From: an uncultured Dehalococcoidia bacterium
GTDB lineage: Bacteria; Chloroflexota; Dehalococcoidia; UBA6926
NCBI GenBank assembly: GCA_964405845.1
Contig: CAYOPL010000012.1
Location: 95,583-159,582, forward strand
Direction of reading: 5' to 3'
DNA length: 64,000 nt
Shown: positions 5,658 to 22,368 of the stretch, piece by piece
How the letters are laid out: the number at the start of each line of letters is the position of its first letter
Position numbering within the stretch: position 1 is the first letter of the stretch
Notes under the pieces: model-generated
The model's input: the letters and a program-made list of their open reading frames with translations, nothing else
Databases searched by the model: none
Told to the model about the DNA's origin: nothing
Made by a program: the position numbers and the translations under genes

Positions 5658-7310
5658 ATGTCAATCGTTCAAACGGCACTCGATAAACTTCCAGTTCGAC
5701 CCTCGTACAGCTGGGGCCAACTGCGCGGTGACGTTTTCGGCGGGCTAACCGCGGGCAGCATCGTCCTGCCCGCCTCCATCGGCTATGGTCTGATTTCCGG
5801 TCTGGGTGCCGTCGCCGGGCTCTATGGAGCTGTGGCGGTTAGCCTCTTTGGCGCGCTCTTTGGCGGCACCCGGGGGATGATCTCCGGCCCGAATATTCTC
5901 GTTACCCTGACGATGGCCGCCGTCGTCTCCCAATACGCCAACAGCCTTGCCGAGGCCGCAACGGCAGCCATTCTTGCCGGTCTGATTCAGATGGGCTTTG
6001 GCGCTCTACGGCTTGGGCGCTATGTCTCCTATATTCCGTATTCCCTGATTGCCGGGTTCTTCACGGCCTTTGGCATCCTTTTGATCATCAAACAAGGACT
6101 GCTTGCCTTCGGTGCATCCGCGGGCGGTACTGCGCTCGACAGCATCCGTGCATTTCCTGATGCGGCGCGAGACGCCAACCTGGAGGCCCTCGCGGTCGCG
6201 ATTTTCTGTGTTGCGTTGGGAGTGGCGTGGCGTGGAAGACTCTTGAAGATTGCCCCGTCTCAATTTGCCGTACTCGTCTGCGGGACAGTCGTGGGCGTTT
6301 TGTTCTTTGCAGGGGCGCCGACTATCGGGGCTATCCCACAAGGGCTGCCCGCGCTGGAACTGCCCCCCTTCTCACTTGATTTGGTAATCCGGCTTCTACA
6401 GCCCGCCTTTGCGATGGCTCTGTTGAGTTCTCTGGCGACACTCATCGTCGCTCTTCCCCTGGATACGATCACAGGTACCCAGCACAAGCCCAATCAGGAA
6501 TTGGGAGCGCAGGGCATCGGCAACGTGGCCGCCGGCCTCATCGGTGGCCTGCCCGGCGGCGTAACCCCCGGCACCTTCGTCAACGTGTTCAGCGGAGGAC
6601 GCACACAGGTGGCGGGATTGACCGTTTCCGCCCTTATCATCTCGGTCATCCTCTTCCTTGGCCCGATAGCAGAGCGCATTCCCTTGGCGGTCCTCGCAGG
6701 CATCCTGGCCATCAACGGCTGGAACGTCATAGATTGGCGGTTCGTCAAACGCCTGCATCGCGTGCCTGCCGACTACACAATCGTGATGCTCCTCACGTGT
6801 TCTCTCGTGCTGTTTGTGGACATCACTCTTGCGGTGGTAGCCGGTGTCGTCGTCTCCGCGATGACCGGCGCGAGACGGCGCGAGAAAATGGAAACCGAAA
6901 CGCTCATCTCCGCCCCTATTCTTGACAGCGTGTTCCTTGAGGACGATGAGGCAGACCCTTTCGAGGCGCGTGCGGGCATCGTTATTTTCCCTGATCGCGT
7001 CACGGTGGCCTCAACCCGTGAGGTGAGCCGCATCGTCCGTTCGGACATCCTCGGGCATCAGGTCGTCATCTTTGACATGTCCCGCACCTTCTTCATCGAC
7101 GATTCCGCTGCGGTGGCCATAGCGGACCTCATCAGGATCGCCGCTGTTCGCCGCCCGGGCCGCCTTGTCATCGCAGGACTGACAAGACCGGTCACGGAAA
7201 CTCTTGACGCCTTCGGTCTACGTGCCGCCTTGCCGGAAGGATTGATTGTTCCGGACATGGACACCGCAAGAGCCCGCGTACGCGACTTACTGGCCACCCG
7301 TTCACCCTGA
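5658..7310 (+). CDS. SulP family anion (sulfate/bicarbonate) transporter with a C-terminal STAS domain.
   Basis: MSIVQTALDKLPVRPSYSWGQLRGDVFGGLTAGSIVLPASIGYG... is a SulP signature, with multiple TM segments. The C-terminal STAS region reads VIFDMSRTFFIDDSAAVAIADL. The start was refined to the ATG at 5658, since the track ORF from 5316 overlaps the PKS start. The stop TGA lies inside the REP-like repeat. Confidence 0.85.
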   Translation: MSIVQTALDKLPVRPSYSWGQLRGDVFGGLTAGSIVLPASIGYGLISGLGAVAGLYGAVAVSLFGALFGGTRGMISGPNILVTLTMAAVVSQYANSLAEAATAAILAGLIQMGFGALRLGRYVSYIPYSLIAGFFTAFGILLIIKQGLLAFGASAGGTALDSIRAFPDAARDANLEALAVAIFCVALGVAWRGRLLKIAPSQFAVLVCGTVVGVLFFAGAPTIGAIPQGLPALELPPFSLDLVIRLLQPAFAMALLSSLATLIVALPLDTITGTQHKPNQELGAQGIGNVAAGLIGGLPGGVTPGTFVNVFSGGRTQVAGLTVSALIISVILFLGPIAERIPLAVLAGILAINGWNVIDWRFVKRLHRVPADYTIVMLLTCSLVLFVDITLAVVAGVVVSAMTGARRREKMETETLISAPILDSVFLEDDEADPFEARAGIVIFPDRVTVASTREVSRIVRSDILGHQVVIFDMSRTFFIDDSAAVAIADLIRIAAVRRPGRLVIAGLTRPVTETLDAFGLRAALPEGLIVPDMDTARARVRDLLATRSP

Positions 7311-9304: not shown

Positions 9305-10144
9305 TTACGAAAACGGCTTGTTGGCAATCGCCTCACCGTATCCGACGGCAAGCAGCGCGCCGGGATCCCTCCGCCACTTCTCATAAGCGACGGCTATGTC
9401 ATCGGCGAGTTTCCTGGTGGCCACTCCGTAGCCAATCGCCTGCTCTCTGAGGCTCGGCGACAGGAACCAGCCGTAGACCAGGCGATGGATAAACTCGATT
9501 TCCTCGACCGAGTCGAATATGTCGAACGTCGCATTCATTCTAATGTTGGCAAATCCTGCCTTGAGAAGCTGGCCCTTTAGTTCCTTGCCCATCTGCGGAT
9601 GAGCATCGTCAGTCGCCAAAATGTCTTCGAACATATCCCATGCTTTCCTGAGAATGCCGAAGTCGGGCTCGGTGAAGCTGGACTCGCAGATCATCTCGCG
9701 GCAACCGATGATGCCGCCGGGTTTCAGGACTCGCATCACCTCTGTCAGCACGGCTTCCGTGTCCGGAACGTGCATCAGCACATTGTGGCAGTGGGCGACG
9801 TCGAAGTAGTCGTCCTCAAACGGAAGGTCCGATACGTCGGCAACCTGGAATATCGTGTTTGTCTGACCGCCTGCCTCCGCCACGGATCGCGCCAGGTCGA
9901 TCTGGGATTCCTCCATGTCGACGCCGTGCAGCTCCCCCGGTGAGACAGCCTGTGCCAGGCCAACTGATATGGTGCCGGGTCCGCAGCCGAAATCCAGAAC
10001 GCGAAGCCCCGGCCTCAGATAGGGAAGCAGATAGGCGGCGTTCTTCTGTGCGGTGAACCGCCGCATAGTCTCAACAAACTCATGGCCGAAGCCCATCGTG
10101 TAGTCGGGGGTTGAAGATGTGCGCTCAGTCATAGTGTCATTCAT
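9305..10144 (-). CDS. Class I SAM-dependent methyltransferase (Methyltransf_11/25 type).
   Basis: The motif I sequence VLDFGCGPGTIS is present, followed by HGVDMEE, the acidic FDVAHCHNVLMHVPD, and the post-II LKPGG. Confidence 0.8.
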   Translation of the reverse strand: MNDTMTERTSSTPDYTMGFGHEFVETMRRFTAQKNAAYLLPYLRPGLRVLDFGCGPGTISVGLAQAVSPGELHGVDMEESQIDLARSVAEAGGQTNTIFQVADVSDLPFEDDYFDVAHCHNVLMHVPDTEAVLTEVMRVLKPGGIIGCREMICESSFTEPDFGILRKAWDMFEDILATDDAHPQMGKELKGQLLKAGFANIRMNATFDIFDSVEEIEFIHRLVYGWFLSPSLREQAIGYGVATRKLADDIAVAYEKWRRDPGALLAVGYGEAIANKPFS

Positions 10145-10294
10145 GGACGTTCTGATCGTTCAGTCCGGACAACATGATTCCGCAAACACAACCCTGTAGG
10201 GCTGAAGATATGACACAATCCTGGCGCGCACCCTTTCCCCAGGTTTTCGCCTCTCGGGTTACGTTGATGATTGGGCGGGGGGTCTAAAGTAGCC

Positions 10295-10376
10295 TATCAC
10301 TCGGATATAACCGTCCCGTAACTGTTTCACCGATTTCCTATGACTTTGTGTAACGATTCAGAGAACTCCGCCAGAA
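10295..10376 (+). promoter_or_regulatory. Regulatory cassette copy A: three direct GTAAC(T)ATTC-like sites (ggatataaccgt / ccgtaactgtttc / gtgtaacgattc), followed 17 nt later by a -10-like cagaat.
   Basis: Its architecture matches copies B-E, with site spacing of about 12-13 and about 35 bp. Confidence 0.4.
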
Positions 10377-10694
10377 TCGCCACCCCCGCTCACCCTGAGC
10401 CTGTCGAAGGGCGGGAATAATCCCCCATTTTTCGCGCCACGGTCATCGAGGTGCGATCGCGGGTGGACACGCTACTGGCGCCCCCGTGTCGGGATCCGGG
10501 GGCTGCTCAGGCCCAGAAGGCGGGTCTGGGAACAGGTAGAGACTTTTGGGGTGCGACAGCGTAACGACCAAAGGGAATTTCGAGGTGTGGTCGCCACCGG
10601 ACTTATGCTGTTGCCGGCACAGGCTTTCGCCGTACAAGGGCCCCGTGGGGCGCCTCCCGACATTGCACTGCGAATCTCGCCGAGTGCCACTATA

Positions 10695-10775
10695 CCACTC
10701 GGATATAACCGTACCGTAACTATTCGTCCGATTCGGCATCACTTCCTGTAACTATTCCAGGAACTCCGCCAGAAT
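10695..10775 (+). promoter_or_regulatory. Regulatory cassette copy B (ggatataaccgta / ccgtaactattcg / ctgtaactattcc + cagaat).
   Basis: Direct repeats can be read in the sequence. It lies immediately 3' of gene 10809..11654(-). Confidence 0.45.
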
Positions 10776-10808
10776 CACTACGCCCGCTCACCATGAACTT
10801 GCCGTGGG

Positions 10809-11654
10809 TTAGCGCCAAGCCGCGCCCCTCGGGTGCATCCTTACACAGTAGGTGCTTCCTATCGAAGTCCACCGGGCAGGGGTTCCCGCCGTGTAGTACC
10901 CGTCACGGGGACAGACGTATTCTTTTGGAGTTGTAGCCGCATACCGGGTCTGGTCCAGCGTCATTCTTGAGTAATCGGGCACTACAGACCATTCGTTGCC
11001 GTCGTTCGGACAAGCATAGTTGGAGTCTTTGCTGGCCTTTACGAACCCTCCGTTGGAATCAGTGCGGACGCAAGATTCAGTGTCCTGTCGGCTGAACGCA
11101 AAACGCTCTTGAACGGACGCGCAGTATTTGGACAACCCTGAACTGGCCAGATCACCCACTCCGTAAGGCGAAAAGTATGAATAGACAGCACTGAGCAGGA
11201 TGCCAATGTTAGGCGCGTTTATCGTCGCCACCCCCGGGATATCCAGGAATGGGAATCCCTCTCTGTTATCAGAGTAGAAGCTCGAATAGATTACGCACGC
11301 AGCCTTCGCAGGTGTCTGTGTGGCCCGTCGCGGAGTTGAAGGAGACGTGCCTTGTGTCGGTGGTGTCGTTGCGCGTGGAGTTGGAGTGGCGGTGGCCTCG
11401 GGCTGCCCCGGGCCGTCATCCTCGTCCTCATCGCCATCCTCGTCGCCGTCCTCGTCTTCATCCTCCTCGTCCTCCTCTTCCGGAACCGGAGTCGGAGTGG
11501 CGGTCGCCAGGACAGGCGGCGGCAGCAAAGGACCCGGATTGCCCGGATCGGGAAGATCAGGCAGAGCCATCACAGAGGCGGCTGTCAGCATCAGCGATGC
11601 CATCAAGGCAATCGTTACAACAACACCAAGGGAAAATCGTCCACGCTTGCTCAT
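10809..11654 (-). CDS. Secreted protein of unknown function. It has a signal peptide, a Pro/Thr-rich linker, a poly-acidic (E/D) low-complexity linker, and a C-terminal Cys-rich domain of about 160 aa.
   Basis: It begins MSKRGRFSLGVVVTIALMASLMLTAASVMA (signal peptide), followed by the EEEDEEDEDEDGDEDGDEDEDD tract. The C-terminal domain has 6 Cys (CVIYSSFY...YCASV...CVRTD...YACPNDG...YVCPRDG...YCVRMH). I recognise no known domain. Confidence 0.6.
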   Translation of the reverse strand: MSKRGRFSLGVVVTIALMASLMLTAASVMALPDLPDPGNPGPLLPPPVLATATPTPVPEEEDEEDEDEDGDEDGDEDEDDGPGQPEATATPTPRATTPPTQGTSPSTPRRATQTPAKAACVIYSSFYSDNREGFPFLDIPGVATINAPNIGILLSAVYSYFSPYGVGDLASSGLSKYCASVQERFAFSRQDTESCVRTDSNGGFVKASKDSNYACPNDGNEWSVVPDYSRMTLDQTRYAATTPKEYVCPRDGYYTAGTPARWTSIGSTYCVRMHPRGAAWR

Positions 11655-12451
11655 CAGCTGCCCCTCCTTTCCTGGGAAGCAGTCGAGTACGCGTTATAGG
11701 CGGCCACCGCCGCCTCGTGAGCCTCCGTGTAGCGGGCGTAGAGCGCCTCAAGACGGTCCAGGCCGTCCTGATCAGTCGGGCAGGTTGAGACCGCCTCAAC
11801 GCTGCCGCACAGGGAAATCGCCAGCTCTTTGTACTCACGCTCAGCGCTCGAACGCTCCTCAAGTCGTGAATAGCTCTCATGGGCAAGACTATAGAAGGCG
11901 ACGTCCTCGGTGAGCGTTGCGGCCGTCTCTGACAGTTCCCGATGTTCGACAAAGAGGGTGTCGTAGCGACCCTGGATGTCCGCCTTCTCTCGCGACAATG
12001 AAGCAACGGTGGCTTGCAGCCGTTCACGCTCCTGGTCGCTCCGGGAGACGACCAGCGAATAGCGCGTGTTCTCGGCCTTCAGATCATTGCGGACATCTTC
12101 CAGGCCCTCGCGTTCCGCGCGTTCTCTCTCTAGTGCGGCCTCGGAGTCCACGAGCTGCCGCCCGGTCTCCTGCACGACCGAAGAAAGAGAATCGCGCTCA
12201 TTTCCCAGTGAGATTTTCGTTGCCCGCTCCACCTCAAGCGCAGCTTCGTTCTCGCTGAGATCCAGCGTGGTCGCGTTGAGTTGGCCCCGCGTCCCGCTCA
12301 GTTCATTCAGGGAGATGGCCAGCCCAATGCTGGCGGCGCCCAGAAGCGCGATCGCGAGAATCAGTCCAACGATCCGCTTGTTGTTCGGCGCGCTGTCGAA
12401 AGCGACAACGGCCATAGCTATTCCAAGGCTCAATCTGCTCATAACTCGCAT
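11654..12451 (-). CDS. Membrane-anchored coiled-coil protein of unknown function.
   Basis: An N-terminal TM segment (LSLGIAMAVVAF ... IVGLILAIALLGAASIGLAI) is followed by a long charged heptad-like region (ALEVERATKISLGNERD...LERERAEREGLEDVRNDLKAENTRY...). The start ATG at 12451 has an AAGGAAAGGA SD upstream; the track start at 12511 is TTG. The stop overlaps the start of the downstream gene by 1 nt, indicating an operon. Confidence 0.55.
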   Translation of the reverse strand: MRVMSRLSLGIAMAVVAFDSAPNNKRIVGLILAIALLGAASIGLAISLNELSGTRGQLNATTLDLSENEAALEVERATKISLGNERDSLSSVVQETGRQLVDSEAALERERAEREGLEDVRNDLKAENTRYSLVVSRSDQERERLQATVASLSREKADIQGRYDTLFVEHRELSETAATLTEDVAFYSLAHESYSRLEERSSAEREYKELAISLCGSVEAVSTCPTDQDGLDRLEALYARYTEAHEAAVAAYNAYSTASQERRGS

Positions 12452-12784
12452 GGCACAGGTCGACCATCCTTTCCTTCTTAGTGGGTGCAGCCGGCGCTTG
12501 TCCAAGCGCAAAAAATGTAGGTGAATGCCGAGAGAGAGGTTAGGGACTAATGCTCCATTCTCACGCTGTCAGCCCTCGTGTTGGGAGCGAAGGCTGCGCA
12601 GACCCATAGCGGGCCTGGATACAGGTGGAACCTATGGAGTGCAACAACACAGCGATCGCGAAAAGGCTCCCCGCGCGGTAGCCACCGGACGTGACGCTGC
12701 GTTGGCACAGTATTTCGTTGTACAAGGGCCAAGTGGGATGCCTCCCAACATGCACTACGAATCTGACCGAGGGCTACTATACCA

Positions 12785-12862
12785 CGCGAATATAACTATT
12801 CCGTAACTATTTGGCTCCCTCTCTATCACTTTTCGTAACTATTCGCCGAAAAGCAACAAAAT
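12785..12862 (+). promoter_or_regulatory. Regulatory cassette copy C (gaatataactatt / ccgtaactatttgg / tcgtaactattcg + caaaat).
   Basis: Three direct repeats sit between gene 12944..13996(-) and gene 11654..12451(-). Confidence 0.45.
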
Positions 12863-12881
12863 CAATGCCGTAGCGCACTTA

Positions 12882-12932
12882 CCCGCTCACCCTGAGCCTT
12901 CGCCCCGCTCACCCTGAGCCTGTCGAAGGGTG
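12882..12932. repeat. REP-like repeat; two tandem module A copies.
   Basis: cccgctcaccctgagccttcgcc + ccgctcaccctgagcctgtcgaagggtgagcc. Confidence 0.75.
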
Positions 12933-12943
12933 AGCCCCAGTCG

Positions 12944-13996
12944 CTACGCCCCCAGGGCCATAAGCACTCCCTCAAGCCCCGCCAGTTCCTCCTCATTCAG
13001 GCACGCGAACAGGTCGAATCCGGCGATGGCCGCCTCGTTGAAATCGACGGACGAGGACTGCGAAGGGTCGCCGCCAATGGGGGAGGCGATGGTAGCGATA
13101 TAAGTCGGGTGGCTGCGGATGAAGTCGCCCGCGCACGCCGCGGACGCATCGCTGAGATCTCCAATCTGGGCCTCAGTGGCAGCGAGCAGGAACGCGACGA
13201 CGCTATCCAACTCAAGGCATTCGGCCGCGCTGACGCCAAGCCCCGCTGCCCTGAGCGGCGTTGTGCCCACCATCGCTACGTACTCCGCCTCGGAGAGCGT
13301 GTCACGCACGCAGGACGCTTCAGACTCTGAGAGCAGGGCCACAAGGTCTTCCCCCGTGAGGGGTGAGAGATTGTCGATAGAGGTGTAGAGCTCGATCAGA
13401 GCGACTGCTTTCTCGTTCTCCGTCATGCAGTCGTAGAAGCCGACAAGGATGTCGCGTGTCTCCTCGCCGTCGAACGTGGTTGTCTCCGGCAATTCAAAGC
13501 CAAGGCGAGCGTAGATGAACTCAGGGTGTTCGAGGGCAAAGTCGGCGATGCACGCGCGGCTTTCGTCGCTGCGTCCACCGGCTGCGGCGTCAAGGAACGC
13601 GACGCCAACAAGCACAGCGTTCTCAGGGGTCAGGCATCCGAATATCGACGCGGCAGCCGCAGGATCTCCGCCGCCTGACGCGAGCAACGGAAAGCTCAGC
13701 ATGGCCTCGTACACGGCATCGCCCAAAACGCCCCTGATACAGGCTGCCTCCTGTTCAGCGAGACGGTCGAACAGGTCTTTGCCCGTGGTTGTCGGGCCGA
13801 GGACGAAGTCCCGCATCGAAAGGACTTCCGGAACGGGTGTCGGCGTGGCCGTCGGAAGCGGAGTTGCCGTAGCAGTCGCCGTGGGTTCCGGGGTAGGCGT
13901 CGGCGGCTCCGAGCATCCAATGAGCGTTAGTGCCAGGAGGAAGATTACTCCCGCGGCAAGTAGTTTGAATCGCAGCATTCCCGTCTCTCGGTGCAT
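12944..13996 (-). CDS. Lipoprotein of unknown function with 3-4 internal repeats of a Cys-containing alpha-helical module of about 90 aa.
   Basis: The signal peptide plus lipobox is LALTLIGCSEP, followed by a Pro/Thr linker. The repeated modules are ACIRGVLGDAVYEAML / ACIADFALEHPEFIYARL / SCVRDTLSEAEYVAMV / ACAGDFIRSHPTYIATI. The start is either the ATG at 13996 or 13978 (MLRFKLLAAG). Confidence 0.6.
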   Translation of the reverse strand: MHRETGMLRFKLLAAGVIFLLALTLIGCSEPPTPTPEPTATATATPLPTATPTPVPEVLSMRDFVLGPTTTGKDLFDRLAEQEAACIRGVLGDAVYEAMLSFPLLASGGGDPAAAASIFGCLTPENAVLVGVAFLDAAAGGRSDESRACIADFALEHPEFIYARLGFELPETTTFDGEETRDILVGFYDCMTENEKAVALIELYTSIDNLSPLTGEDLVALLSESEASCVRDTLSEAEYVAMVGTTPLRAAGLGVSAAECLELDSVVAFLLAATEAQIGDLSDASAACAGDFIRSHPTYIATIASPIGGDPSQSSSVDFNEAAIAGFDLFACLNEEELAGLEGVLMALGA

Positions 13997-14047
13997 ATTC
14001 AGTGTTTCAACTCCGGGTCGTACCCGCCTCTTCGCCTCGCGGCGTAA

Positions 14048-14143
14048 TTCCGTATAACCCTATCGCATCCATACAACCAATCCGTAACTATTCGGCTGCC
14101 TATCTATCACTTCTTGTAACCATCCGCCGAAATATCGAAAAAT
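14048..14143 (+). promoter_or_regulatory. Regulatory cassette copy D (ccgtataaccc / tccgtaactattcgg / cttgtaaccatcc + aaaaat).
   Basis: Three direct repeats sit between the adhesin gene stop (14193) and the lipoprotein gene start. Confidence 0.45.
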
Positions 14144-14192
14144 CCCTGCCCTCCCGTTCACCCTGAGCCTTCGGATCAGGCGTGCGCCGCCA

Positions 14193-16934
14193 TTAATCGT
14201 TCGGACGGGCGGTGCGGGTGAAGGACCATTCACCCCAGCCGTTGGCGTTCTTGGCCCGGACTTCGACCTCGTAGCGCGTGCCGCCGGTGAGGCTAGAGAT
14301 TCTCTGCTGCCTTGGATTGCTGCACCCGACGGATGGATCACAGATGCGCTGGGCCGGGCGCGGGAAGAGCACGGTGCCCTCAGTCCAGGTGGTGGCCCCC
14401 GCTGCGCGGTGGCGCACCTGGTAGGCGTAGGGCAGCGAACCGGTGGTGACCAGGTCCCACTCGACGAACAGGTTCTGGCTGCTGCCGGGGATGACCCTGA
14501 CTCGCGGCGGTATCACGGTCGTGGTGTTGCCGGCGGCCAAGGTGACGGTGAGGATCTCCGACTGGAAGCCCAATTTCGGCGAGTCCGTGGTCATCGGATC
14601 GTTGTCATTGCCGTCGGTGCGGGCGCGGACGTGGACCTGCCAGGTCCCGTTGGCCAGGCCGGTAAACGTGTGGCTGCGGTCGCTCACGCCCTTGACGGTG
14701 TTGGTCCAACTCCCGCTGGTGCCGGAGCGGTGGCGGACGATGTATTGGTCGATGCTGCCGACAGCGCCGATGGTGCTGGCTTCGCCCCACTCGACAACCA
14801 GCTTGCTGTTGCCGCCGGACGCGAACACCGCAGGGGCGCCCGGTCCGCCTTCCTCGCCGGAACTCTGGGTAGAATTGGTAGTCGCGCCCTCAATCGCGTG
14901 CCGGGCGAAAACCGAGATTGACCCGGTGGCTTCAGGCCGGACCAGGGTCCCTTTGGGGCAGTTTACTGTATCAGTTCCACCGCCGTCTGTGACGTCGCAG
15001 GTGGTCGTACCCCATTCCTTATTGCTTTTGGTTGTAATGAAGACTTGGCCGCCGATATGCTGAGGCCCGGTAGTGAACCAGACCTGGGTCGGCTCGGACC
15101 AGACCCGGGTGGCCGGTAGCCAGACCGACCAGGCGTTGGTGGCGGTCGAGGCGGGTTGGCCGCTGGCGTGGGTGCGGGCGGCGACGCGGACGGTGTAGTA
15201 CGCGCCGTCGGTCAACCCGGTGATGCGGTGAGCTGTGGCGGTAGCAAGTGCAGTGGCGCTGCTCGCGGTTCCGCTGCAGCCCGTCGTGCTGTTGGGATCG
15301 GGACAGGCCTTCCATTCCACAACAAATCCGACCATCGTGCGTCCCGTCGGCGTAGTGAACGAGTCCCAGTCAACTTCGATGCCATTGTTGTTGTTGGCCA
15401 CCGCAGTCACGCCGGACGGGCTGTTTGTGGCGGCGGTCGCCGATGGGTCCTGGCCGGTGATCGTGACCCTCTGGCCGGTGGTCGAGTACTTATCGTCGGA
15501 GGCGTCGTAGGCGGAGATGCGGAAGTCGTAGGCGACGTGGGGCTCGATGCCGTAGAAGATGAAGTGCGGCTGGCTGGCGTCGGTCTGCGTGTCGACGTAC
15601 CTCCACGGCAACGCGCTGTAACCGCGCCAGTAGTCGTCGCTGGAACGCTTGAGTTCGAGGTCGAACGTCTCGCGGGCCTCGCAGCCGGTGCCGTTGACGC
15701 TGGTGATCCGGCCGCTGACGGCGTTGCGGGCGTAGGGCTTGATCGCGAGCGTGATGCAGGCGTCCGGCACACTGTTGGCTTCCATCACGATGTAGTCGTC
15801 GGAGTCGCCCTCGTCGTACTGGATGCGCACGGAGAAGACGTAGTCGCCCGGGGTCAGGCCGCGGAAGGTGTGCGTCCGCGTCTCAGGGGAAACTGAGGCG
15901 GTCCAACTGACGGGACTCGACTCGCTGATGGCGGAGAGGACGAAGCCGGTCACTTCGCAGGACTCGTCCATGTTGTCGGGCAGCGTCCAGGAGACGACCG
16001 CGCCCTTGCCGATGGTCAGGGCGGAAACCGAGGAGGGCGCGGTTCGCTGGCAGTACACCTCGGTATCGTCGGAGGGCTCGAGTTGCCAGTTGACTTTGTG
16101 ACCTGAGTCGTGGGCCAGGCCGGAGTGGGCAAGGTTGGCGGCAGTCCCCGTGGCGGAGGACGCGATTGTGCCGCCGTTGAGCCTGAGGGAGTTGGGGAGG
16201 ACGGCTATGCCCTGGGTGGAGTAGTTGGGTTCTACGACGGTGTGGGCGAAGGTGAGCACATTTGCAGCGACGCCTGGCACGTAGGAGGCCCACTTGGTCC
16301 CCCAGTGGGCAGGGTCCATGTCAATGGCGATCTGCGGTGTTCCAGTGACCGTCACGTCTTCGCTAAAGGCGACCGACACCTCGATCACCTCGCCGTTGGC
16401 GTAGGTGTCGTCCTCGCCGGGGTTGGAGGTGATCGCGACGGCGGGCACGGTGGGCCCGGTGGGCCCGGTCACTTTCCAGTTCACCTTGTGGTTCGCGTCG
16501 TGGTCCAGTCCGGAATGGGACAGCGTAGCCGCTGTCCCCGATGAGACGGACGTGATCGAACCGCCGTAGAGTCTGAGGCTGTCCGCCAGCACGGCGATGC
16601 CCTGCGTGGAGTAGTTGGGTTCGACCACGGTATGAGCGAAGACGATGCTGCTGCCGCCGCTGCCGCTGTTGTAGAAGGCCCATTTCGTGCCCCAGTCGGC
16701 CGGGTCCATGTCGATCTTGATATACGGCGTGCCGGTGACGTTCACCGTTTCGCTGAAGGTCAGCGTCACGCGGATGTTCTGACCTAAGGCGTAGGTCTTG
16801 TCGGGGCCGGCGCCGGAGGTGATGGCCACGCCGGTCACTGAAGGGCCGTCCGCGGCGTTCACCGAACTGCCTCCCCACAAGGACACGGCGAGAGCCGCGA
16901 GGAAGAGGACAAGCACGGCTGCGGTGCGGCGCAA
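14193..16934 (-). CDS. Large secreted cell-surface protein (adhesin-like). It has two tandem N-terminal repeat domains of about 150 aa, followed by several fibronectin type III / Ig-like beta domains.
   Basis: The signal peptide is MRRTAAVLVLFLAALAVSLWGGSSVNA. Repeat 1 (VTGVAITSGAGPDKTYALGQNIRVTLTFSE...MDPADWGTKWAFY...HTVVEPNYSTQGIAVL...HKVNWKV) is duplicated as ...VAITSNPGEDDTYANGEVIEVSVAFSE...MDPAHWGTKWASY...HTVVEPNYSTQGIAVL...HKVNWQL. The downstream regions are FN3-like, rich in T/S/G with W..Y..V..R patterns. Confidence 0.65.
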   Translation of the reverse strand: MRRTAAVLVLFLAALAVSLWGGSSVNAADGPSVTGVAITSGAGPDKTYALGQNIRVTLTFSETVNVTGTPYIKIDMDPADWGTKWAFYNSGSGGSSIVFAHTVVEPNYSTQGIAVLADSLRLYGGSITSVSSGTAATLSHSGLDHDANHKVNWKVTGPTGPTVPAVAITSNPGEDDTYANGEVIEVSVAFSEDVTVTGTPQIAIDMDPAHWGTKWASYVPGVAANVLTFAHTVVEPNYSTQGIAVLPNSLRLNGGTIASSATGTAANLAHSGLAHDSGHKVNWQLEPSDDTEVYCQRTAPSSVSALTIGKGAVVSWTLPDNMDESCEVTGFVLSAISESSPVSWTASVSPETRTHTFRGLTPGDYVFSVRIQYDEGDSDDYIVMEANSVPDACITLAIKPYARNAVSGRITSVNGTGCEARETFDLELKRSSDDYWRGYSALPWRYVDTQTDASQPHFIFYGIEPHVAYDFRISAYDASDDKYSTTGQRVTITGQDPSATAATNSPSGVTAVANNNNGIEVDWDSFTTPTGRTMVGFVVEWKACPDPNSTTGCSGTASSATALATATAHRITGLTDGAYYTVRVAARTHASGQPASTATNAWSVWLPATRVWSEPTQVWFTTGPQHIGGQVFITTKSNKEWGTTTCDVTDGGGTDTVNCPKGTLVRPEATGSISVFARHAIEGATTNSTQSSGEEGGPGAPAVFASGGNSKLVVEWGEASTIGAVGSIDQYIVRHRSGTSGSWTNTVKGVSDRSHTFTGLANGTWQVHVRARTDGNDNDPMTTDSPKLGFQSEILTVTLAAGNTTTVIPPRVRVIPGSSQNLFVEWDLVTTGSLPYAYQVRHRAAGATTWTEGTVLFPRPAQRICDPSVGCSNPRQQRISSLTGGTRYEVEVRAKNANGWGEWSFTRTARPND
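15990..16850. repeat. Intragenic tandem duplication of about 430 bp x2 encoding the two N-terminal repeat domains of the adhesin-like protein.
   Basis: Near-identical peptide blocks (HTVVEPNYSTQGIAVL, MDPAxWGTKWA) occur twice. Mirrored + strand track ORFs overlap the same region. Confidence 0.6.
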
Positions 16935-17014
16935 GGACAGGGCAGGGGCTGTGTTGGAGAGCCTCGTGACGTCACCTCATCTCTATCTTTTTGCCAGTTC
17001 GTCCGAGTCTACCA

Positions 17015-17092
17015 AGTAGCTGTAACTATCCCGTAACTATTCGACCGACTCCCCATCACTTCTTGTAACCATCCACCAAAATACGCATAATT
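17015..17092 (+). promoter_or_regulatory. Regulatory cassette copy E, which includes a good sigma70-like promoter (TTGTAA-N17-CATAAT) for the hybrid kinase/regulator gene. The sites are gctgtaactatcc / ccgtaactattcg / cttgtaaccatcc.
   Basis: The -35 TTGTAA lies at 17063-17068 and the -10 CATAAT at 17086-17091, with a 17-nt spacer. The same triple-repeat layout is seen in copies A-D. Confidence 0.5.
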
Positions 17093-17171
17093 GCCCGTAG
17101 AAACGCAGACTCCAACGCCCACTAGGGACGAAACCCACGGGGTATCCCGAGGCCCATTAAGAGGTGACAAG

Positions 17172-19535
17172 TTGAGTCAACAAGACCAGCTGATGCGAGA
17201 GGTGGCGGAGCTTCGAGAGCGTCTCTCCAGGCTGAGCGAGGCTGGCTTCCGCATCAACGAGAGCTTGGACTTCGACACGGTGTTGCAGGAGGTGGTGGAC
17301 AGCGCCCGGACGCTGACCGACTCACGCTACGGGGCGATCACCATCCCGGGCGAGGTCTTCCGACGCCCCACGTTCATCACCTCTGGTCTGACCGAGGAGG
17401 AGCACCAGGGGCTGTGGGACATGCAGGAGGGACTGGGGTTCTTCGAGTATCTCAGCGGCCTGGAGGAGCCCCTGCGGGTCTCTGATATCGACAGCCATCT
17501 GAAGGCATTGAACATGCCTGCATTCCTGCCCTCGGTGGTGGTGAGTTCCGTGCTGGTAGCCCCGATACGCCATCAGGGAGTTGGTGTGGGCACCATCTAT
17601 CTCGCTCATGGCCCTGACGGTGGGGAGTTCACCCAGGAAGACGAGGACACGCTGGTCCTGTTCGCTTCCCAGGCGGCGATGGCCATCGCCAACGCTCGCA
17701 GGCACCGGGAAGAGCGGCGGGCTCGAGCAGACCTGGAGACCCTCTTGGAGGCGTCCCCCGTTGGCGTCGTAATCCTCGATGCCGTCATGGGAGTGCCGAA
17801 ATCCTTCAACAAGGAAGCTAGGAGAATCGTGGGCAGCCTGCTCAATCCTGACCAGTCCCCGGAGGACCTCATCGACCTGGTGACCTACAGGCGGGCCGAT
17901 GGTCGAGAGGTCACCCTGCGAGAGTTCCCGATGACCGAGATCCTCACCACCCGGGAGACCGTACGGGCCGAAGAGATCGTCATGAGTGTCCCGGACGGCC
18001 GCAGCGTCACTACCCTTGTTAACGCCACACCCATCTTCTCGGATGAAGGTGAAGTCGAGTCGGTAGTCGTCACTTTTCAGGACATGGCCAACGTGGAGGA
18101 GATGGCGCGGCTGCGAGCCGAATTCCTGGCGATGGTTAGTCACGAGTTGAGAACTCCTCTGACCTCCATTAAAGGTTCTGTCTCCACAATCATGGATGCG
18201 GGGGCGGACCTTGACCCCGCCGTGGCTCGCCAGTTCGTTCGGATTATCAATGACCAGGCCGACCACATGAACGCCCTGGTTGCAGACTTGCTCGACGTGG
18301 CCCGCATTGAGACGGGCACGCTGCCGGTTGATCCTGAGCCTGCCGAGGTGGCCGTATTGATGGACAGGGCGCGGAGCGCCTTCGTCAGTTCTTCGGGAGA
18401 CAGGAACAACTTCACAATAGACATCGAGCCGGATCTGCCTCTGGTGATGGCGGATAGGCGGCGCATCGTCCAGGTGCTGGGCAACCTGCTTTCTAACGCG
18501 GCGCGAAATTCCCCGGAGTCGGCGGTCATCAGGGTAACCGCTGTGCGGGATGGTGTTCATGTTGCGTTCTCTGTGGTCGACGAGGGACGCGGCATCCCGG
18601 CGGAGAGCCTGCCGCACCTGTTCCGCAAGTTCTATGGAGCGCAGTCCGAGGAGCAGGGAGGAGACACGGGGCTGGGTCTGGCCATCTGCAAGGGCATTGT
18701 GGAAGCGCATGGCGGCCGCATCTGGGCTGAGAGCGACGGGCCCGGAATGGGAGCGCGTTTCACCTTCACCCTTCCTGCGCTCGAAGACTCCGGAAACGAC
18801 ACAGCCGGTAGATTCCCGCCGGTCTCAACGCGACGTGAAGAAAGGGAAGAGGAGCGGCTGCGCGTTCTGGCCGTGGACGACGACCCCAACGATCTCCGCT
18901 ACGTTCGTGACACTCTTGCTAGGTCGGGCTATGCCCCCATCTTGACCGGAGACCCGGAGGAGGCGCTCCGTCTCGTGGAGGAGGAGAAGCCGGAACTCGT
19001 GTTGCTTGATCTGATGCTCCCGGAAACGGACGGCATCGAGCTGATGAAGGACATCCTCGATGTGACCGATGTGCCGGTTATCTTCCTGTCCGCCTACGGA
19101 CGAGAAGAGCTCATCGCCAGGGCCTTCGACATGGGGGCCACCGATTACGTCGTGAAGCCCTTCTCCCCCACGGAACTCTCAGCCAGGATCAGGGCGGCCC
19201 TGCGAAGACGCGCGGCCGCAGAGCCGACAAAACCTTACGTGCTCGGCGATCTGACCGTCGACTACGCCGGGCGCAGGGTGACCCTCGCCGGGAATCCTGT
19301 CCATCTCACACCGACTGAATATCGGGTGCTGGCCGAACTCTCGGCCAGCGCAGGACAGGTGATGACATATGAGCGCCTTCTCGTTCAGGTTTGGGGCGAG
19401 AAAAGCGACGGTGACGTGCGCCCAATGCGCACTATCGTGAACAAGCTCCGCCGCAAGCTGGGAGAGGACGCGGAAACCCCCACCCGCATCTTCACCGAAC
19501 CCCGCGTCGGCTACCGTATGCCGAAAGGCGAGTAG
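17172..19535 (+). CDS. Single-protein two-component system. The domain order is coiled-coil/GAF - PAS - HisKA - HATPase_c (sensor histidine kinase) - REC receiver - OmpR/PhoB-type winged-helix DNA-binding domain.
   Basis: The H-box reads EFLAMVSHELRTPLTSI, and the ATPase region contains GLGLAICKGIVEAHGGRIWAESDGPGMGARFTFTLP. The REC domain reads LAVDDDPNDLRYVRDTLARSGYAPILTGDPEEALRLVEEEKPELVLLDLMLPETDGIEL. The trans_reg_C region reads LTPTEYRVLAELSASAGQVMTYERLL...VRPMRTIVNKLRRKL...RVGYRMP. The probable start is TTG 17172 (SD AAGAGGTGA upstream) or ATG 17193; the track ORF begins at an in-frame TTG at 17091. Confidence 0.85.
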   Translation: MSQQDQLMREVAELRERLSRLSEAGFRINESLDFDTVLQEVVDSARTLTDSRYGAITIPGEVFRRPTFITSGLTEEEHQGLWDMQEGLGFFEYLSGLEEPLRVSDIDSHLKALNMPAFLPSVVVSSVLVAPIRHQGVGVGTIYLAHGPDGGEFTQEDEDTLVLFASQAAMAIANARRHREERRARADLETLLEASPVGVVILDAVMGVPKSFNKEARRIVGSLLNPDQSPEDLIDLVTYRRADGREVTLREFPMTEILTTRETVRAEEIVMSVPDGRSVTTLVNATPIFSDEGEVESVVVTFQDMANVEEMARLRAEFLAMVSHELRTPLTSIKGSVSTIMDAGADLDPAVARQFVRIINDQADHMNALVADLLDVARIETGTLPVDPEPAEVAVLMDRARSAFVSSSGDRNNFTIDIEPDLPLVMADRRRIVQVLGNLLSNAARNSPESAVIRVTAVRDGVHVAFSVVDEGRGIPAESLPHLFRKFYGAQSEEQGGDTGLGLAICKGIVEAHGGRIWAESDGPGMGARFTFTLPALEDSGNDTAGRFPPVSTRREEREEERLRVLAVDDDPNDLRYVRDTLARSGYAPILTGDPEEALRLVEEEKPELVLLDLMLPETDGIELMKDILDVTDVPVIFLSAYGREELIARAFDMGATDYVVKPFSPTELSARIRAALRRRAAAEPTKPYVLGDLTVDYAGRRVTLAGNPVHLTPTEYRVLAELSASAGQVMTYERLLVQVWGEKSDGDVRPMRTIVNKLRRKLGEDAETPTRIFTEPRVGYRMPKGE

Positions 19536-19712
19536 CCGGCGAACAATAAAACCTCGTTGTTCCTGCACCTTTCCCGGCTGGATGACTCAGACCAAAACTA
19601 CGACTAACTTCCGGCCGATAGTGATGTAGTAGCCGCTATTGACGCAGTAAAGGTAAAGGCGACCTGACCCGAAAGGCTGGCGTAACCAACCCAGCCCAAT
19701 TACAGCAAAAAA

Positions 19713-19784
19713 TACCCCTGCCGGGACTCGAACCCGGGCCACCAGCTCCGGAGGCTGGTGCTCTATCCGCTGAGCTACAGGGGC
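19713..19784 (-). tRNA. tRNA-Arg (anticodon CCG).
   Basis: The reverse complement GCCCCTGTAGCTCAGCGGATAGAGCACCAGCCTCCGGAGCTGGTGGCCCGGGTTCGAGTCCCGGCAGGGGTA folds as a cloverleaf. The anticodon loop CUCCGGA carries the anticodon CCG, and the T-loop reads GGTTCGAGTCC. CCA is not encoded. Confidence 0.9.
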
Positions 19785-19830
19785 ATGATTACGCCTTGCG
19801 GCGCCCCACCATCATACCCCGCTCAGTTGG

Positions 19831-21153
19831 CTAAACCTGGCTCTCCGACACTTGATCCCTGCGCAAGCCCGGGGCATTCCTGCGGAACGCAGGCACCAGC
19901 ACAGCGGGCGCAATAAGTGTGGTCGCAATCGTCATTAGGATTGCCACGCCGAACAGGTCTTGCCCAATCAATCCTTCAGATACACCGATGCCGGCCACAA
20001 TCAGTCCCACCTCGCCGCGCGGCGCCATTCCCACGCCCACGCGCCATGCTCCGATGCGACTGAATCCTGCCGCCAGCGCCGGAATGCCGGATCCCGCCAC
20101 CTTGCCGATAATGGCCAGCACAACGACGATCAACCCGAATCCCAGCGCATCTAACATCGCCTCGATATTCACCATCGTGCCCATCACGACGAAGAAAATC
20201 GGAACCATTGCGTGGTATAGGCCGTTCAAAGGTTGATGCAGTTGTTGGCGGAGCTCTGTTTGGGACAACGCCAGGCCCACGGAGTACGCGCCGATGATCA
20301 TTGCTAGCCCGAACATCTCCGCCAGCGCCGCCGCAAATAGTCCGATGCCGAACACAATCGCAATCGCCGCGCCCTCCACGCGGACGCTGTTGATCGCTCG
20401 GACAATGTACTTCGCGCCGAGAATCCCGCCGCCGGTCAGCACAAGCCAGAAGCCGATCGCCTTCGCGCCGACGATGGCCACCTCGGTCCACTCGAACGAA
20501 GCTGCCTCTGTAGCTGCCCCAACGGACTCGCCTGCCGTCACGCCCACCACAACCGTCAAAATCAGGATTCCCAGCACGTCGTCCACAACGGCCGCGCCCA
20601 GGATCGTCACACCCTCCGGTGAATCCAAACGTCGTAAATCGTCCAGCACCCGCGCCGTGATGCCCACGGACGTCGCCGTCATGATGGTTCCGACAAACAG
20701 GGCAGGGGCCGATGTGATTGAGTCGGCGAATCCGAACAGAACAGTTGAGTATGCTCCCAGGGCAAAGGGGGCAACAACGCCGCCGATGGCCACCACGCTC
20801 GCCTGCGGCACGAACCGCAGGAACGCCTTGAGATCGGTATTCAGTCCGGTTTCGAGCAGCAGGATGATGGCCGCCACCTGGCCCACAACGAACAACGTCT
20901 TGGGGACGGGGATGACAGCGTCCTCTGCTGGCTTCTCAAAAAGCGGACCGATCTGCCCGATTGGGCCGATGCCGGCCAACTCGAGGCCACCCAATGCGAA
21001 CGGGCCGATGATGATGCCCGCTACCAGCTCCCCAATGACGGCCGGCTGTCGCAGAATGCGCTCAGTGAACTCGCCTGCAAGCTTGGCGACGACCAGGATT
21101 ATGCCCAGCTGCATGGCGAGAATCACGGCCGAGTGGGTAAAATCTTCGCCCAA
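19831..21153 (-). CDS. Monovalent cation:proton antiporter of the CPA2 family (Kef/NapA-like Na+(K+)/H+ exchanger).
   Basis: MGEDFTHSAVILAMQLGIILVVAKLAGEFTERILRQPAVIGELVAGIIIGPF... shows 12-13 TM segments typical of Na_H_Exchanger family proteins. Confidence 0.8.
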   Translation of the reverse strand: MGEDFTHSAVILAMQLGIILVVAKLAGEFTERILRQPAVIGELVAGIIIGPFALGGLELAGIGPIGQIGPLFEKPAEDAVIPVPKTLFVVGQVAAIILLLETGLNTDLKAFLRFVPQASVVAIGGVVAPFALGAYSTVLFGFADSITSAPALFVGTIMTATSVGITARVLDDLRRLDSPEGVTILGAAVVDDVLGILILTVVVGVTAGESVGAATEAASFEWTEVAIVGAKAIGFWLVLTGGGILGAKYIVRAINSVRVEGAAIAIVFGIGLFAAALAEMFGLAMIIGAYSVGLALSQTELRQQLHQPLNGLYHAMVPIFFVVMGTMVNIEAMLDALGFGLIVVVLAIIGKVAGSGIPALAAGFSRIGAWRVGVGMAPRGEVGLIVAGIGVSEGLIGQDLFGVAILMTIATTLIAPAVLVPAFRRNAPGLRRDQVSESQV

Positions 21154-21709: not shown

Positions 21710-21973
21710 ATGCCAATCTACGAATTCAAGTGCGATGACTGCAGTCGAGACACCAGCGTCTTCACCCGCTCCGTCTCCGCCCCCATCGGCGACCCCACGT
21801 GCCGCCACTGCGGCGGCAAGTCCCTGCGACGCAAGGTCTCGCGTGTTGCCGTCGTTCGCTCGCGACAGGATCTCTACCGCGACTATGACCGCCTCTCCGC
21901 CTTTGATGACGCGCCGAGTGATGATGATTACGATGGGACGGATGACGGCTACTTCGATGACGGGTACGATTAA
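21710..21973 (+). CDS. FmdB-family zinc-ribbon protein (putative regulatory protein) with an acidic D/Y-rich C-terminal tail.
   Basis: MPIYEFKCDDCSRDTSVFTRSV...CRHCGG shows the CxxC...CxxC motif. The tail reads DDAPSDDDYDGTDDGYFDDGYD. Confidence 0.75.
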   Translation: MPIYEFKCDDCSRDTSVFTRSVSAPIGDPTCRHCGGKSLRRKVSRVAVVRSRQDLYRDYDRLSAFDDAPSDDDYDGTDDGYFDDGYD

Positions 21974-22011: not shown

Positions 22012-22368
22012 ATGCCCATTTATGAATTCACCTGTAACGAGTGCGGCAAGCGCTCCTCCACCTTCTATAAGGTCATGCCGGAGGAGCTGCCTACCAATCA
22101 GGAATGTGCCCATTGCGGCTCCACCAAGACCGAGAAGGTCATGTCCCGTGCCGCATATGTCCGCTCCACCGCCTCCCGTCATGAGGCCTCCGGTGATCCC
22201 GATGCCCCCGGCTATGACTACTGGCGTGACCCGTCAAACATCGGCCGATGGGCTGAGAAGCGCATGGACGAGGCTGGGATTGAGATGCCTGATCGCGTCA
22301 AAGAAATGATTGGCCAGGCCCGCGAAGGCGAAGTCGACAAAATCCTCGACAAGCGCGGCTTGGACTAA
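22012..22368 (+). CDS. FmdB-family zinc-ribbon protein; a paralogue of the upstream gene.
   Basis: MPIYEFTCNECGKRSSTFYKV...CAHCGSTKTEKVMSRAAYV is present. Confidence 0.75.
   Translation: MPIYEFTCNECGKRSSTFYKVMPEELPTNQECAHCGSTKTEKVMSRAAYVRSTASRHEASGDPDAPGYDYWRDPSNIGRWAEKRMDEAGIEMPDRVKEMIGQAREGEVDKILDKRGLD

Follow-up and report, generated by a model that had tools for sequence, protein, structure and literature searches.

The window analyzed here, a stretch of 64,000 nucleotides (nt) from contig CAYOPL010000012.1 of an uncultured Dehalococcoidia bacterium (assembly GCA_964405845.1), carries a gene at 17172..19535 on the + strand whose product joins sensor, histidine kinase, receiver, and DNA-binding output in one soluble chain. 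We propose that this fused protein is a self-contained, autoregulated cytoplasmic two-component system, which controls its own gene and a small island of envelope and secreted-protein genes; we assign this reading a probability of about 0.65. The evidence comes from the architecture and conserved catalytic residues of the protein, from a cassette of direct repeats with a fixed layout at its promoter, and from the presence of five such cassettes in the window.

Throughout, the gene was compared with its relatives. A protein search returned at least 8000 matches, of which the best 120 clusters were compared. A genome scan with one genome per species found 204 encoded relatives, of which 80 were kept as loci (L numbers); together with the window, these make 81 family genes, which were translated and aligned, with residue conservation counted over the 78 full-length proteins. 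The closest orthologs are L001 and L002 (87% and 84% identity). Finally, an exhaustive search covered 1.84 billion representatives at 50% identity, and the best 150 were examined.

A single reading frame encodes a soluble protein of 787 residues

The open reading frame (ORF) listing gives an uninterrupted + strand ORF at 17091..19535. Among the 54 loci with alignment from residue 1, 33 have TTG and 21 have ATG as the codon homologous to TTG 17172, and a motif resembling a Shine-Dalgarno (SD) sequence lies 4-16 nt upstream of the start in 51 of 54 homologous loci. On the basis of these codons and motifs, we place the start at TTG 17172, which gives a product of 787 amino acids (aa). A previous reading made from the sequence alone (hereafter, the sequence-only reading) had allowed either TTG or ATG, with a strong SD. 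The homologous starts favor TTG with its SD and not the in-frame ATG at 17193, from which the earlier length of 780 aa derives and which the figure of 787 aa replaces. The features of the start are as follows:

17172..19535, + strand: fused sensor kinase/response regulator coding sequence, 787 aa plus stop (ORF, homologous starts, Pfam)
17159-17167, + strand: Shine-Dalgarno sequence AAGAGGTGA, followed by four bases and then TTG at 17172

No signal or transmembrane segment was found in the protein by hydropathy, alignment with DevS, or the AlphaFold model. The highest Kyte-Doolittle windows of 19 residues score 1.76 (residue 112) and 1.66 (residue 190); both lie within the GAF and PAS folds, are aligned with the soluble GAF-A domain of DevS, and form strands in the AlphaFold model, the secondary structure of which is that of soluble domains throughout. 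Because the hydropathy maxima sit in folds that match soluble DevS, we conclude that the protein has no membrane segment, in agreement with its earlier description as cytoplasmic. An identical protein sequence is present in NCBI.

The kinase and receiver keep their catalytic residues

The domain order GAF-PAS-HisKA-HATPase-REC-OmpR winged helix, given in the sequence-only reading, is confirmed by Pfam, with every domain above its gathering score. The domains and key residues are listed below, where DHp denotes the dimerization and histidine phosphotransfer domain and pLDDT the predicted local distance difference test score.

17268..17687, + strand: GAF domain resembling DevS/DosT GAF-A, aa 33-172 (Pfam; PDB 2w3d/2y79, E 4e-18)
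17730..18086, + strand: PAS domain, aa 187-305 (PF00989, 27.2 bits against a cutoff of 22.6)
18114..18317, + strand: HisKA/DHp domain, aa 315-382 (PF00512, 68.9 against 26.9 bits)
18141-18143, + strand: codon of the phospho-acceptor His324 (alignment to HK853 SHELRTPL)
18453..18779, + strand: HATPase_c domain, aa 428-536 (PF02518, 99.8 bits)
18780..18863, + strand: flexible tether between kinase and receiver, aa 537-564 (low pLDDT, poor conservation)
18864..19193, + strand: receiver domain, aa 565-674 (PF00072, 89 bits)
19008-19010, + strand: codon of the phospho-acceptor Asp613 (alignment to KdpE)
19290..19520, + strand: OmpR/PhoB-type winged helix, aa 707-783 (PF00486, 67 against 26.2 bits, E 1.6e-18)
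19416-19460, + strand: recognition helix VRPMRTIVNKLRRKL, aa 749-763

The kinase core (residues about 300-541) matches HK853 and VicK (E about 1e-38) and keeps all boxes. Invariant in all 78 full-length proteins are the kinase residues H324, N442 (N box), D470/G472/G474 (G1), and G500/G502 (G2), as well as the receiver residues D570, D613, S640, and K662. D569 is Asp in 75 of these proteins and Glu in 3, and 77 have the switch residue Tyr642. The stretch 564-783 can be aligned with KdpE and MtrA over their full length (E about 1e-40), as far as the last strand, and D613 stands opposite the Asp of the KdpE ILDLGLP motif (D52 by residue count). Therefore, the receiver has kept its phospho-acceptor Asp and the C-terminal region is a trans_reg_C domain (E 1.6e-18, with end-to-end alignment to KdpE and MtrA), two points on which the sequence-only reading depended.

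In the β5/α5 segment of the receiver, GATDYVVKPFSPTELSARIRAALRRR, residues D658, E668, R672, and R678 are invariant and R679/680 nearly so; the first Asp of the usual DD pair is Thr or Ala here. Dimerization hallmarks of the OmpR class on β5/α5 have been described (PMC9981736), and because they are kept here, the receiver looks like a terminal, allosteric one rather than a phosphorelay intermediate. The tether that joins it to the kinase (aa 537-564) is the least conserved segment in the family, with a mean identity of 35% compared with about 80% for the catalytic domains, and pLDDT is below 50 for residues 539-560.

By tblastn (E < 0.1), the 64 kb contain no further gene for a kinase, receiver, or winged helix, and Pfam found no histidine phosphotransfer (Hpt) domain in the fused protein or in ten neighboring ORFs; the tblastn scan is blind to Hpt. 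Thus, neither a cognate Hpt nor an extra response regulator, which the sequence-only reading had proposed to look for nearby, appeared in these searches.

On the sensory side, the closest solved relatives of the GAF domain are the GAF-A domains of Mycobacterium tuberculosis DevS and DosT (2w3d, 2y79, 2vzw), with E values of 4e-18 to 6e-16 over residues 33-180. The RYGA motif and the Tyr of GTxYL are common to both. The His of the DevS YHPPM motif, which we take to be the proximal heme ligand His149 (this fits the 22-residue spacing to Tyr171 in the aligned DevS), is opposite Leu119 in the fused protein; in the family, position 119 is L in 36 proteins, G in 20, R in 5, and S in 4, and His is not among the commonest residues. 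A heme-based redox or gas sensor of the DevS/DosT kind, for which the proximal His is characteristic, was therefore rejected as unsupported. DevS itself has a HisKA_3/NarL-type partner and is separate from its regulator. For the PAS domain, the AlphaFold model has the expected pattern of strands and helices at residues 198-304, and the family alignment contains no invariant Cys or His there.

The promoter cassette contains four half-sites in two pairs

Upstream of the fused gene lies a cassette of 54 bp (cassette A), made of two pairs of 11-bp direct repeats, one helical turn apart on the same face of the helix. It is flanked by promoter-like elements in both directions:

17021..17074, + strand: cassette A, R1-R2-gap-R3-R4 (layout common to about 70 of the 81 family loci)
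17021-31, + strand: R1 TGTAACTATCC, cassette A
17032-42, + strand: R2 CGTAACTATTC, cassette A, followed by an 11-nt gap
17054-63, + strand: R3 CATCACTTCT, cassette A
17064-74, + strand: R4 TGTAACCATCC, cassette A
17063..17091, + strand: promoter-like site of the kinase gene, TTGTAA (-35, inside R4), 17 nt, CATAAT (-10)
17006..17014, - strand: divergent extended -10 TGGTAGACT, facing the fn3 gene
12776-12784, - strand: divergent extended -10 TGGTATAGT at cassette B (sequence)

A repeat finder listed three of these units, at 17021, 17032, and 17064, with a period of 11 bp, and the sequence-only reading accordingly described a triple-repeat cassette. The repeats are real, but their number is four rather than three, as the upstream regions of the 80 loci indicate. 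In about 70 of these loci, the design is fixed: a divergent extended -10 is followed after about 6-8 nt by R1-R2, then by an 11-nt gap, R3-R4, a further 11-12 nt, and CATAAT; R3 is often degenerate. We write “about 70” instead of 71 because the anchor-based cassette caller gives doubtful calls, for example, at L018 and L062.

Both flanking elements belong to this design. CATAAT and its position are conserved across the family loci, and an element resembling TGGTA(T/A)A(G/A)T is found at a fixed distance from R1 in most of them, so that at the divergent promoters R1-R2 sit at about -20 to -40 in the opposite orientation. Given repeats of an OmpR-type design at the gene's own promoter in about 70 loci, we infer that they are candidate binding sites of the fused protein.

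Half-site cores vary together with the recognition helix

We found that the core of the half-site varies with the helix (aa 749-763) between paralog groups:

GTAAC: helix RPMRTIV(S/N)KL
ATCAAC: helix RAMRTIVSSL
GTTAC: helix RPMHTMVSKL or RPMRAIVSKLRSRL
GTGAC: helix RP(L/I/V)RTIV(G/R)(K/R)L
GTAACAG: helix RT(L/I)RTT(I/V)GRL

Pairs of loci were then compared at equal divergence of the part of the protein that does not bind DNA. In the 65-75% bins, repeat similarity is 0.56-0.62 for pairs with identical helices and 0.46-0.47 for the others. Spacer positions outside the repeats are without such a trend, with a partial correlation of 0.12 compared with 0.30 for the repeats. Since the loci are phylogenetically related, we treat this association as suggestive support only.

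Five cassettes precede candidate target genes

The cassette is not limited to the fused gene. Two cassettes were located in the window by a strict search for GTAACTATNNNGTAAC (2 mismatches at most); comparison with L001 and L002, together with looser sub-patterns, brought out the other three. The sub-patterns TAACN5CGTAACNNTT and ATSACTTNNTGTAAC each have exactly five matches in the window, for chance expectations of 0.07 and 0.82, respectively. All five cassettes lie on the + strand between 10.3 and 17.1 kb and align without gaps over about 95 nt. The other four cassettes and the candidate target genes are:

14072..14125, + strand: cassette E; it precedes the - strand lipoprotein gene 12944..13996 by 76 nt
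12791..12844, + strand: cassette B; it precedes a 280-nt leader, behind which come the - strand genes 11654..12511 and 10809..11654
10704..10757, + strand: cassette D, upstream of a degenerate leader copy (10416-10690)
10306..10359, + strand: cassette C; it precedes the - strand methyltransferase gene 9305..10144 by 162 nt, with D and its leader further upstream
14193..16934, - strand: divergent fn3 gene, candidate target, a 913-aa secreted protein (signal-like N terminus, Pfam fn3)
12944..13996, - strand: lipoprotein gene, candidate target, 350 aa (signal peptide then Cys, no Pfam match)
10809..12511, - strand: two-gene unit, candidate targets, a coiled-coil protein of 285 aa with a membrane anchor and an acidic, Cys-rich secreted protein of 281 aa
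9305..10144, - strand: S-adenosylmethionine (SAM)-dependent methyltransferase, candidate target (Pfam)

Each cassette thus stands upstream of a minus-strand unit, and only cassette A has a + strand gene, that of the fused regulator, behind it. This arrangement bears out the earlier suggestion that likely DNA targets are visible nearby, and with five cassettes it does so more strongly than stated there. A BLAST-related large secreted protein is the divergent neighbor in 26 family loci (window included); many of these proteins exceed 1100 aa and extend past the fetched flank.

Some further observations concern the cassettes and the genes next to them. Hairpins resembling repetitive extragenic palindromes (REP), of the form CGCTCACCCTGAGCC...GGGTGAGC, follow cassettes C, D, B, and E on the + strand at 10387-10415, 10784-10810, 12887-12935, and 14150-14175. 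A segment of 4172 bp at 12851-17023 of the window, with the lipoprotein gene, cassette E, and the fn3 gene, is absent from L001 (3853-3911) and L002 (3840-3911). In both orthologs, a single hybrid cassette, its left half B-like and its right half A-like, joins the flank of cassette B to the fused gene. Judging from these sequences, the 4172-bp difference is an indel that arose by recombination between the directly repeated cassettes B and A. Insertion by Campbell-type recombination was considered and dropped, as the hybrid cassette is accounted for just as well by a deletion in the other lineage between B and A.

The methyltransferase family of 9305-10144 (N terminus SSTPDYTMGFG...) is the divergent neighbor in 4-5 loci, including the paralogs L019, L021, L035, and L049. 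In the 913-aa secreted protein, residues about 30-290 contain, in two copies, a unit of about 125 aa (…VTGTPxIxIDMDPAxWGTKWAxY…FAHTVVEPNYSTQGIAVL…), followed by fn3 repeats; the 125-aa repeat has no Pfam or NCBIfam match.

The family is a multicopy one in Dehalococcoidia and SAR202

The best 120 clusters of the protein search are 74-100% identical to the fused protein, with lengths of 764-834 aa, and several of them share contigs. The same set of Pfam domains is present in 119 of them, and the remaining one has no recorded Trans_reg_C match. Almost all of the 80 kept loci come from metagenome-assembled genomes (MAGs) of Dehalococcoidia/SAR202/Chloroflexota, and the few contigs with other taxon labels are probably binning errors. 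We take the isolate names SB066x, RHO1, and COS3 to be those of sponge-derived material, which the record titles do not state. Some chromosomes have at least three copies, such as OZ220720.1 (L030, L037, L045) and OZ240207.1 (L046, L064, L077). Altogether, the earlier statement that fusions of kinase, regulator, and output are uncommon holds for bacteria at large and fails for this lineage, with its 204 relatives and multiple copies on some chromosomes.

More distantly, 75 of the best 150 representatives of the exhaustive search match the fused protein, at 37-69% identity, in a single alignment that begins no later than residue 30 and extends at least to residue 783. In nine distant representatives, the HisKA-HATPase_c-REC-Trans_reg_C region stands behind varied sensors (two GAFs; five PAS; MEDS-GAF-PAS). 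In two of these nine, P0257 and P0211, the HisKA and HATPase_c matches are weak or absent at E 1e-5, while the receiver, Trans_reg_C, and overall length are kept; judging by these matches, their kinase modules may be degenerate. No chain that spans kinase, receiver, and output together was found among solved structures, and full-text searches of the literature returned no paper on this family.

Co-resident paralogs (L030/L037/L045, L046/L064/L077, and others) have near-identical DHp α1 and receiver α1 regions (aa 318-350 and 564-586). These regions normally diverge, which insulates duplicated two-component systems from one another. Either tethering may replace interface specificity in this family or the paralogs may cross-talk.

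Proposed mechanism and alternative explanations

In the mechanism that we propose, a cytoplasmic signal would be read by the N-terminal GAF and/or PAS domain and would alter the activity of HisKA/HATPase_c, so that the kinase dimer autophosphorylates His324. The phosphoryl group would then pass to Asp613 of a receiver in the same dimer, held on a disordered tether of about 25 residues. Phosphorylated receivers of the OmpR type would pair through their α4-β5-α5 faces, and the two winged helices would bind head-to-tail to the repeats R1-R2 and R3-R4 at their 11-bp spacing. Bound R1-R2 would lie just upstream of the divergent extended -10, and R4 would cover the -35 of the kinase gene. Through the four further cassettes, the methyltransferase, the coiled-coil protein and its secreted partner, the lipoprotein, and the fn3 protein would also come under the fused regulator.

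The sign of regulation is suggested by the geometry of the cassette. At PhoB-activated promoters, the site lies over the -35; because R4 overlaps the -35 of the kinase gene in a PhoB-like manner, we suggest positive autoregulation, while the decent -35 leaves room for repression.

Several observations weigh against this proposal. Cassettes C, D, B, and E have no + strand gene and are followed by REP-like hairpins, so that the cassette could spread as a repeated module instead of being kept as an operator. Arrays of several cassettes occur, among the family loci compared, only in the window, L001, L002, and L030. The half-sites within one cassette are not identical to each other, and R3 is degenerate (CATCAC). 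TTGTAA-17-CATAAT is the sole σ70-like match of a consensus scanner in 10100-17300, and one match in 7 kb is not above chance. It agrees with the consensus at 9 of 12 positions, so that the kinase promoter may need no activator and binding at the -35 could repress it. The association between helix and half-site is modest, the GAF domain lacks the DevS heme ligand, and phosphorylation or DNA-binding data for family members were absent from the searched literature.

Some of these points can be taken together in the main alternative explanation, which we consider unlikely. The cassettes would be a repeated promoter or REP-associated module spread by recombination; either RNA polymerase alone or a different regulator would read them, and the binding sites of the fused protein would be elsewhere. 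Besides the hairpins behind four cassettes, this explanation can appeal to the indel relative to L001 and L002, which is bounded by cassettes B and A and so implies that they act as recombination substrates, and to the loose conservation of half-sites inside a cassette. However, in about 70 of the 81 loci, the fused gene has the cassette immediately in front of it and at a constant distance, with proteins that are 61-88% identical. Moreover, 11-bp direct repeats are the type of site used by OmpR-family dimers, the repeat cores shift together with the recognition helix while the spacers do not, and no other regulator gene is consistently present at the loci.

The phosphotransfer step of our proposal could also be wrong in that the pathway does not stop at the receiver. 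The kinase would then mainly serve an unlinked regulator or phosphorelay, or the tethered receiver would be a phosphate sink or intramolecular inhibitor, with DNA binding largely independent of phosphorylation. It is true that the majority of kinases carrying a receiver at the C terminus belong to phosphorelays (PMC9981736), and cross-phosphorylation is conceivable given the near-identical DHp α1 and receiver α1 regions of co-resident paralogs. We nevertheless hold this to be a minor possibility, because the receiver precedes a DNA-binding output, belongs to the terminal OmpR class, and conserves the S640/Y642 switch pair and the α4-β5-α5 residues. In addition, the ten Pfam-scanned neighboring ORFs include no Hpt, receiver, or kinase gene, and the tblastn scan of the 64 kb, blind to Hpt as noted, found no kinase, receiver, or winged helix.

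Slightly less probable still is that the kinase module serves mainly as a scaffold or phosphatase, in a one-component-like protein whose GAF/PAS ligand acts via the dimer on DNA binding, while net phosphorylation stays low. A constitutive dimer to which two DNA-binding domains are tethered could itself favor binding to tandem sites, a problem discussed for hybrid systems of Bacteroides (PMC11253607), and the weak or missing HisKA/HATPase_c matches of the distant P0257 and P0211 would fit such a role. In the fused protein and 77 close relatives, on the other hand, the ATP-binding and phospho-acceptor residues are invariant and conservation is highest in the kinase core, at about 80%, which argues for selection on catalysis.

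Finally, a frameshift or assembly error that artificially joined separate kinase and regulator genes is refuted by the comparative data, as the frame is continuous in the 120 listed clusters (764-834 aa, at least 74% identity), in 78 of the 81 family genes (window plus 80 loci), which read through their whole length in independent assemblies, and in at least 75 representatives at 50% identity.

Comparison with known systems

The nearest parallel to a self-contained system of this kind is offered by hybrid two-component systems (HTCS) of Bacteroides, which likewise have sensor, HisKA/HATPase_c kinase, receiver, and DNA-binding output in one chain (Gao, Wu & Stock 2024, PMC11253607). HTCS also adjoin the genes that they control (here, the candidate targets) and occur as many paralogs per genome. 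They differ in being inner-membrane proteins with a periplasmic glycan-binding sensor (PMC11253607), whereas the fused protein is soluble with cytoplasmic GAF and PAS domains. Their output is an AraC-type helix-turn-helix, in contrast to the Trans_reg_C of the fused protein, in which Pfam finds no HTH_18/AraC match. HTCS adjoin polysaccharide utilization loci, whereas the fused regulator of Dehalococcoidia/SAR202 adjoins secreted-protein genes. The question of how DNA binding stays off when two outputs are carried on a constitutive dimer has been raised for HTCS (PMC11253607) and would apply here as well.

Phosphorelay hybrid kinases (CckA, ArcB, TorS, RcsC) also have a kinase followed by a C-terminal receiver in one chain, and intramolecular transfer from DHp to receiver is their accepted mechanism (PMC9981736). 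Their receiver passes the phosphate to an Hpt, whereas that of the fused protein carries its own DNA-binding output and has terminal features of the OmpR class. The conserved boxes are common to class I HisKA kinases (HK853, VicK/WalK, PhoR, PnpS), relative to which the fused protein lacks transmembrane and HAMP segments and adds receiver and output. With OmpR/PhoB regulators (KdpE, MtrA, PhoB, WalR/YycF, RpaB), it has in common the residues of the pocket, the switch, and α4-β5-α5, but these regulators are free-standing and the fused protein is covalently joined to its kinase.

None of the NCBIfam equivalogs PnpS, PhoR, WalK, MtrA, PhoB, KdpE, and RpaB matched at its curated cutoff. The best kinase matches are PnpS, PhoR, and WalK, and the best scores are 209.5 against 400 for PnpS, 173.9 against 300 for MtrA, and 159.8 against 296.2 for PhoB. 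The fused protein thus fits no named equivalog while drawing its parts from well-known superfamilies (HisKA class I kinase, OmpR/PhoB regulator, DevS-like GAF). As a lead only, we note that TGTAAC-N5-CGTAAC resembles TGTWAH-N5-TGTWAH, which we take to be the WalR consensus, as well as the RpaB HLR1 unit in its complement.

Implications

To our knowledge, work on single-chain two-component systems has been almost confined to Bacteroides, where they are membrane proteins with AraC outputs. The fused protein is a soluble OmpR-type counterpart, and about 10 kb of sequence suffices to read its kinase, receiver, output, candidate operator, and probable regulon. The fusion alone will not astonish a specialist; its usefulness lies in the combination of a soluble single chain, a conserved four-half-site bidirectional candidate operator, the five copies of it, which mark out a compact candidate regulon of secreted and envelope proteins, and several near-identical paralogs per genome. 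Such a system makes it possible to test in vitro whether phosphotransfer occurs within one chain or across the dimer, to ask without membranes how DNA binding stays off with two tethered outputs, and to study how co-resident paralogs avoid cross-talk. The roughly 70 loci are natural replicates, with the same promoter design and slightly different half-sites and recognition helices. The system also gives a first handle on the regulation of large secreted fn3-type proteins in uncultured marine SAR202 bacteria.

More speculatively, and with the odds against it in our estimate, the bidirectional four-half-site operator and the soluble fused protein may form a duplicating module specific to the SAR202/Dehalococcoidia lineage, in which partner specificity comes from covalent tethering and not from diverged interface residues. 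If so, several paralogs with near-identical DHp and receiver surfaces could coexist in one cell, and each of them would be wired, by small changes in helix and operator, to a giant secreted or surface protein of its own. This wiring would run, in many loci, via a conserved short leader ORF that ends in polyproline.

The divergent leader and other features of the window

This leader is conserved on the minus-strand side in about 30 family loci, where a short ORF begins about 50 nt past the divergent -10, upstream of the gene for the large secreted protein. Its product begins M-A-[FLI]-[DV]-[RQ]-x-x-P... and is rich in Ala in its middle part; in at least 10 loci, a polyproline run (FTPPPP, LPPPPDF) forms the end. 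The leader is found, among others, upstream in L006, L026, L038, L039, L043, L051, L056, L058, and L068. In the window, the copy behind cassette B (12553-12738, - strand) encodes 61 aa without a proline run, and the copy behind cassette D (10416-10690) has lost its start codon. A riboswitch or another known RNA was considered for the minus-strand leader, but at the gathering threshold Rfam found only a tRNA in the window and assigned no family to the leader. The leader could be an arrest peptide or a leader peptide dependent on elongation factor P (EF-P), or it could be a structured RNA.

Further REP-like hairpins occur near 7300, 34700, 55200, 56250, 58400, and 62230; like those behind the four cassettes, they lie at the 3' ends of convergent minus-strand genes. 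Downstream of the fused gene, a convergent tRNA-Arg (CCG) lies at 19712-19785 on the - strand, 177 nt past the stop codon, and beyond it is a Na+/H+ exchanger gene (19831..21153, - strand). The small ORFs at 21710-21973 and 22012-22368, both on the + strand, begin MPIYEF-C-(D/E)-C and have CxxC pairs; from translation alone, their products look like duplicated zinc-ribbon proteins of the FmdB type.

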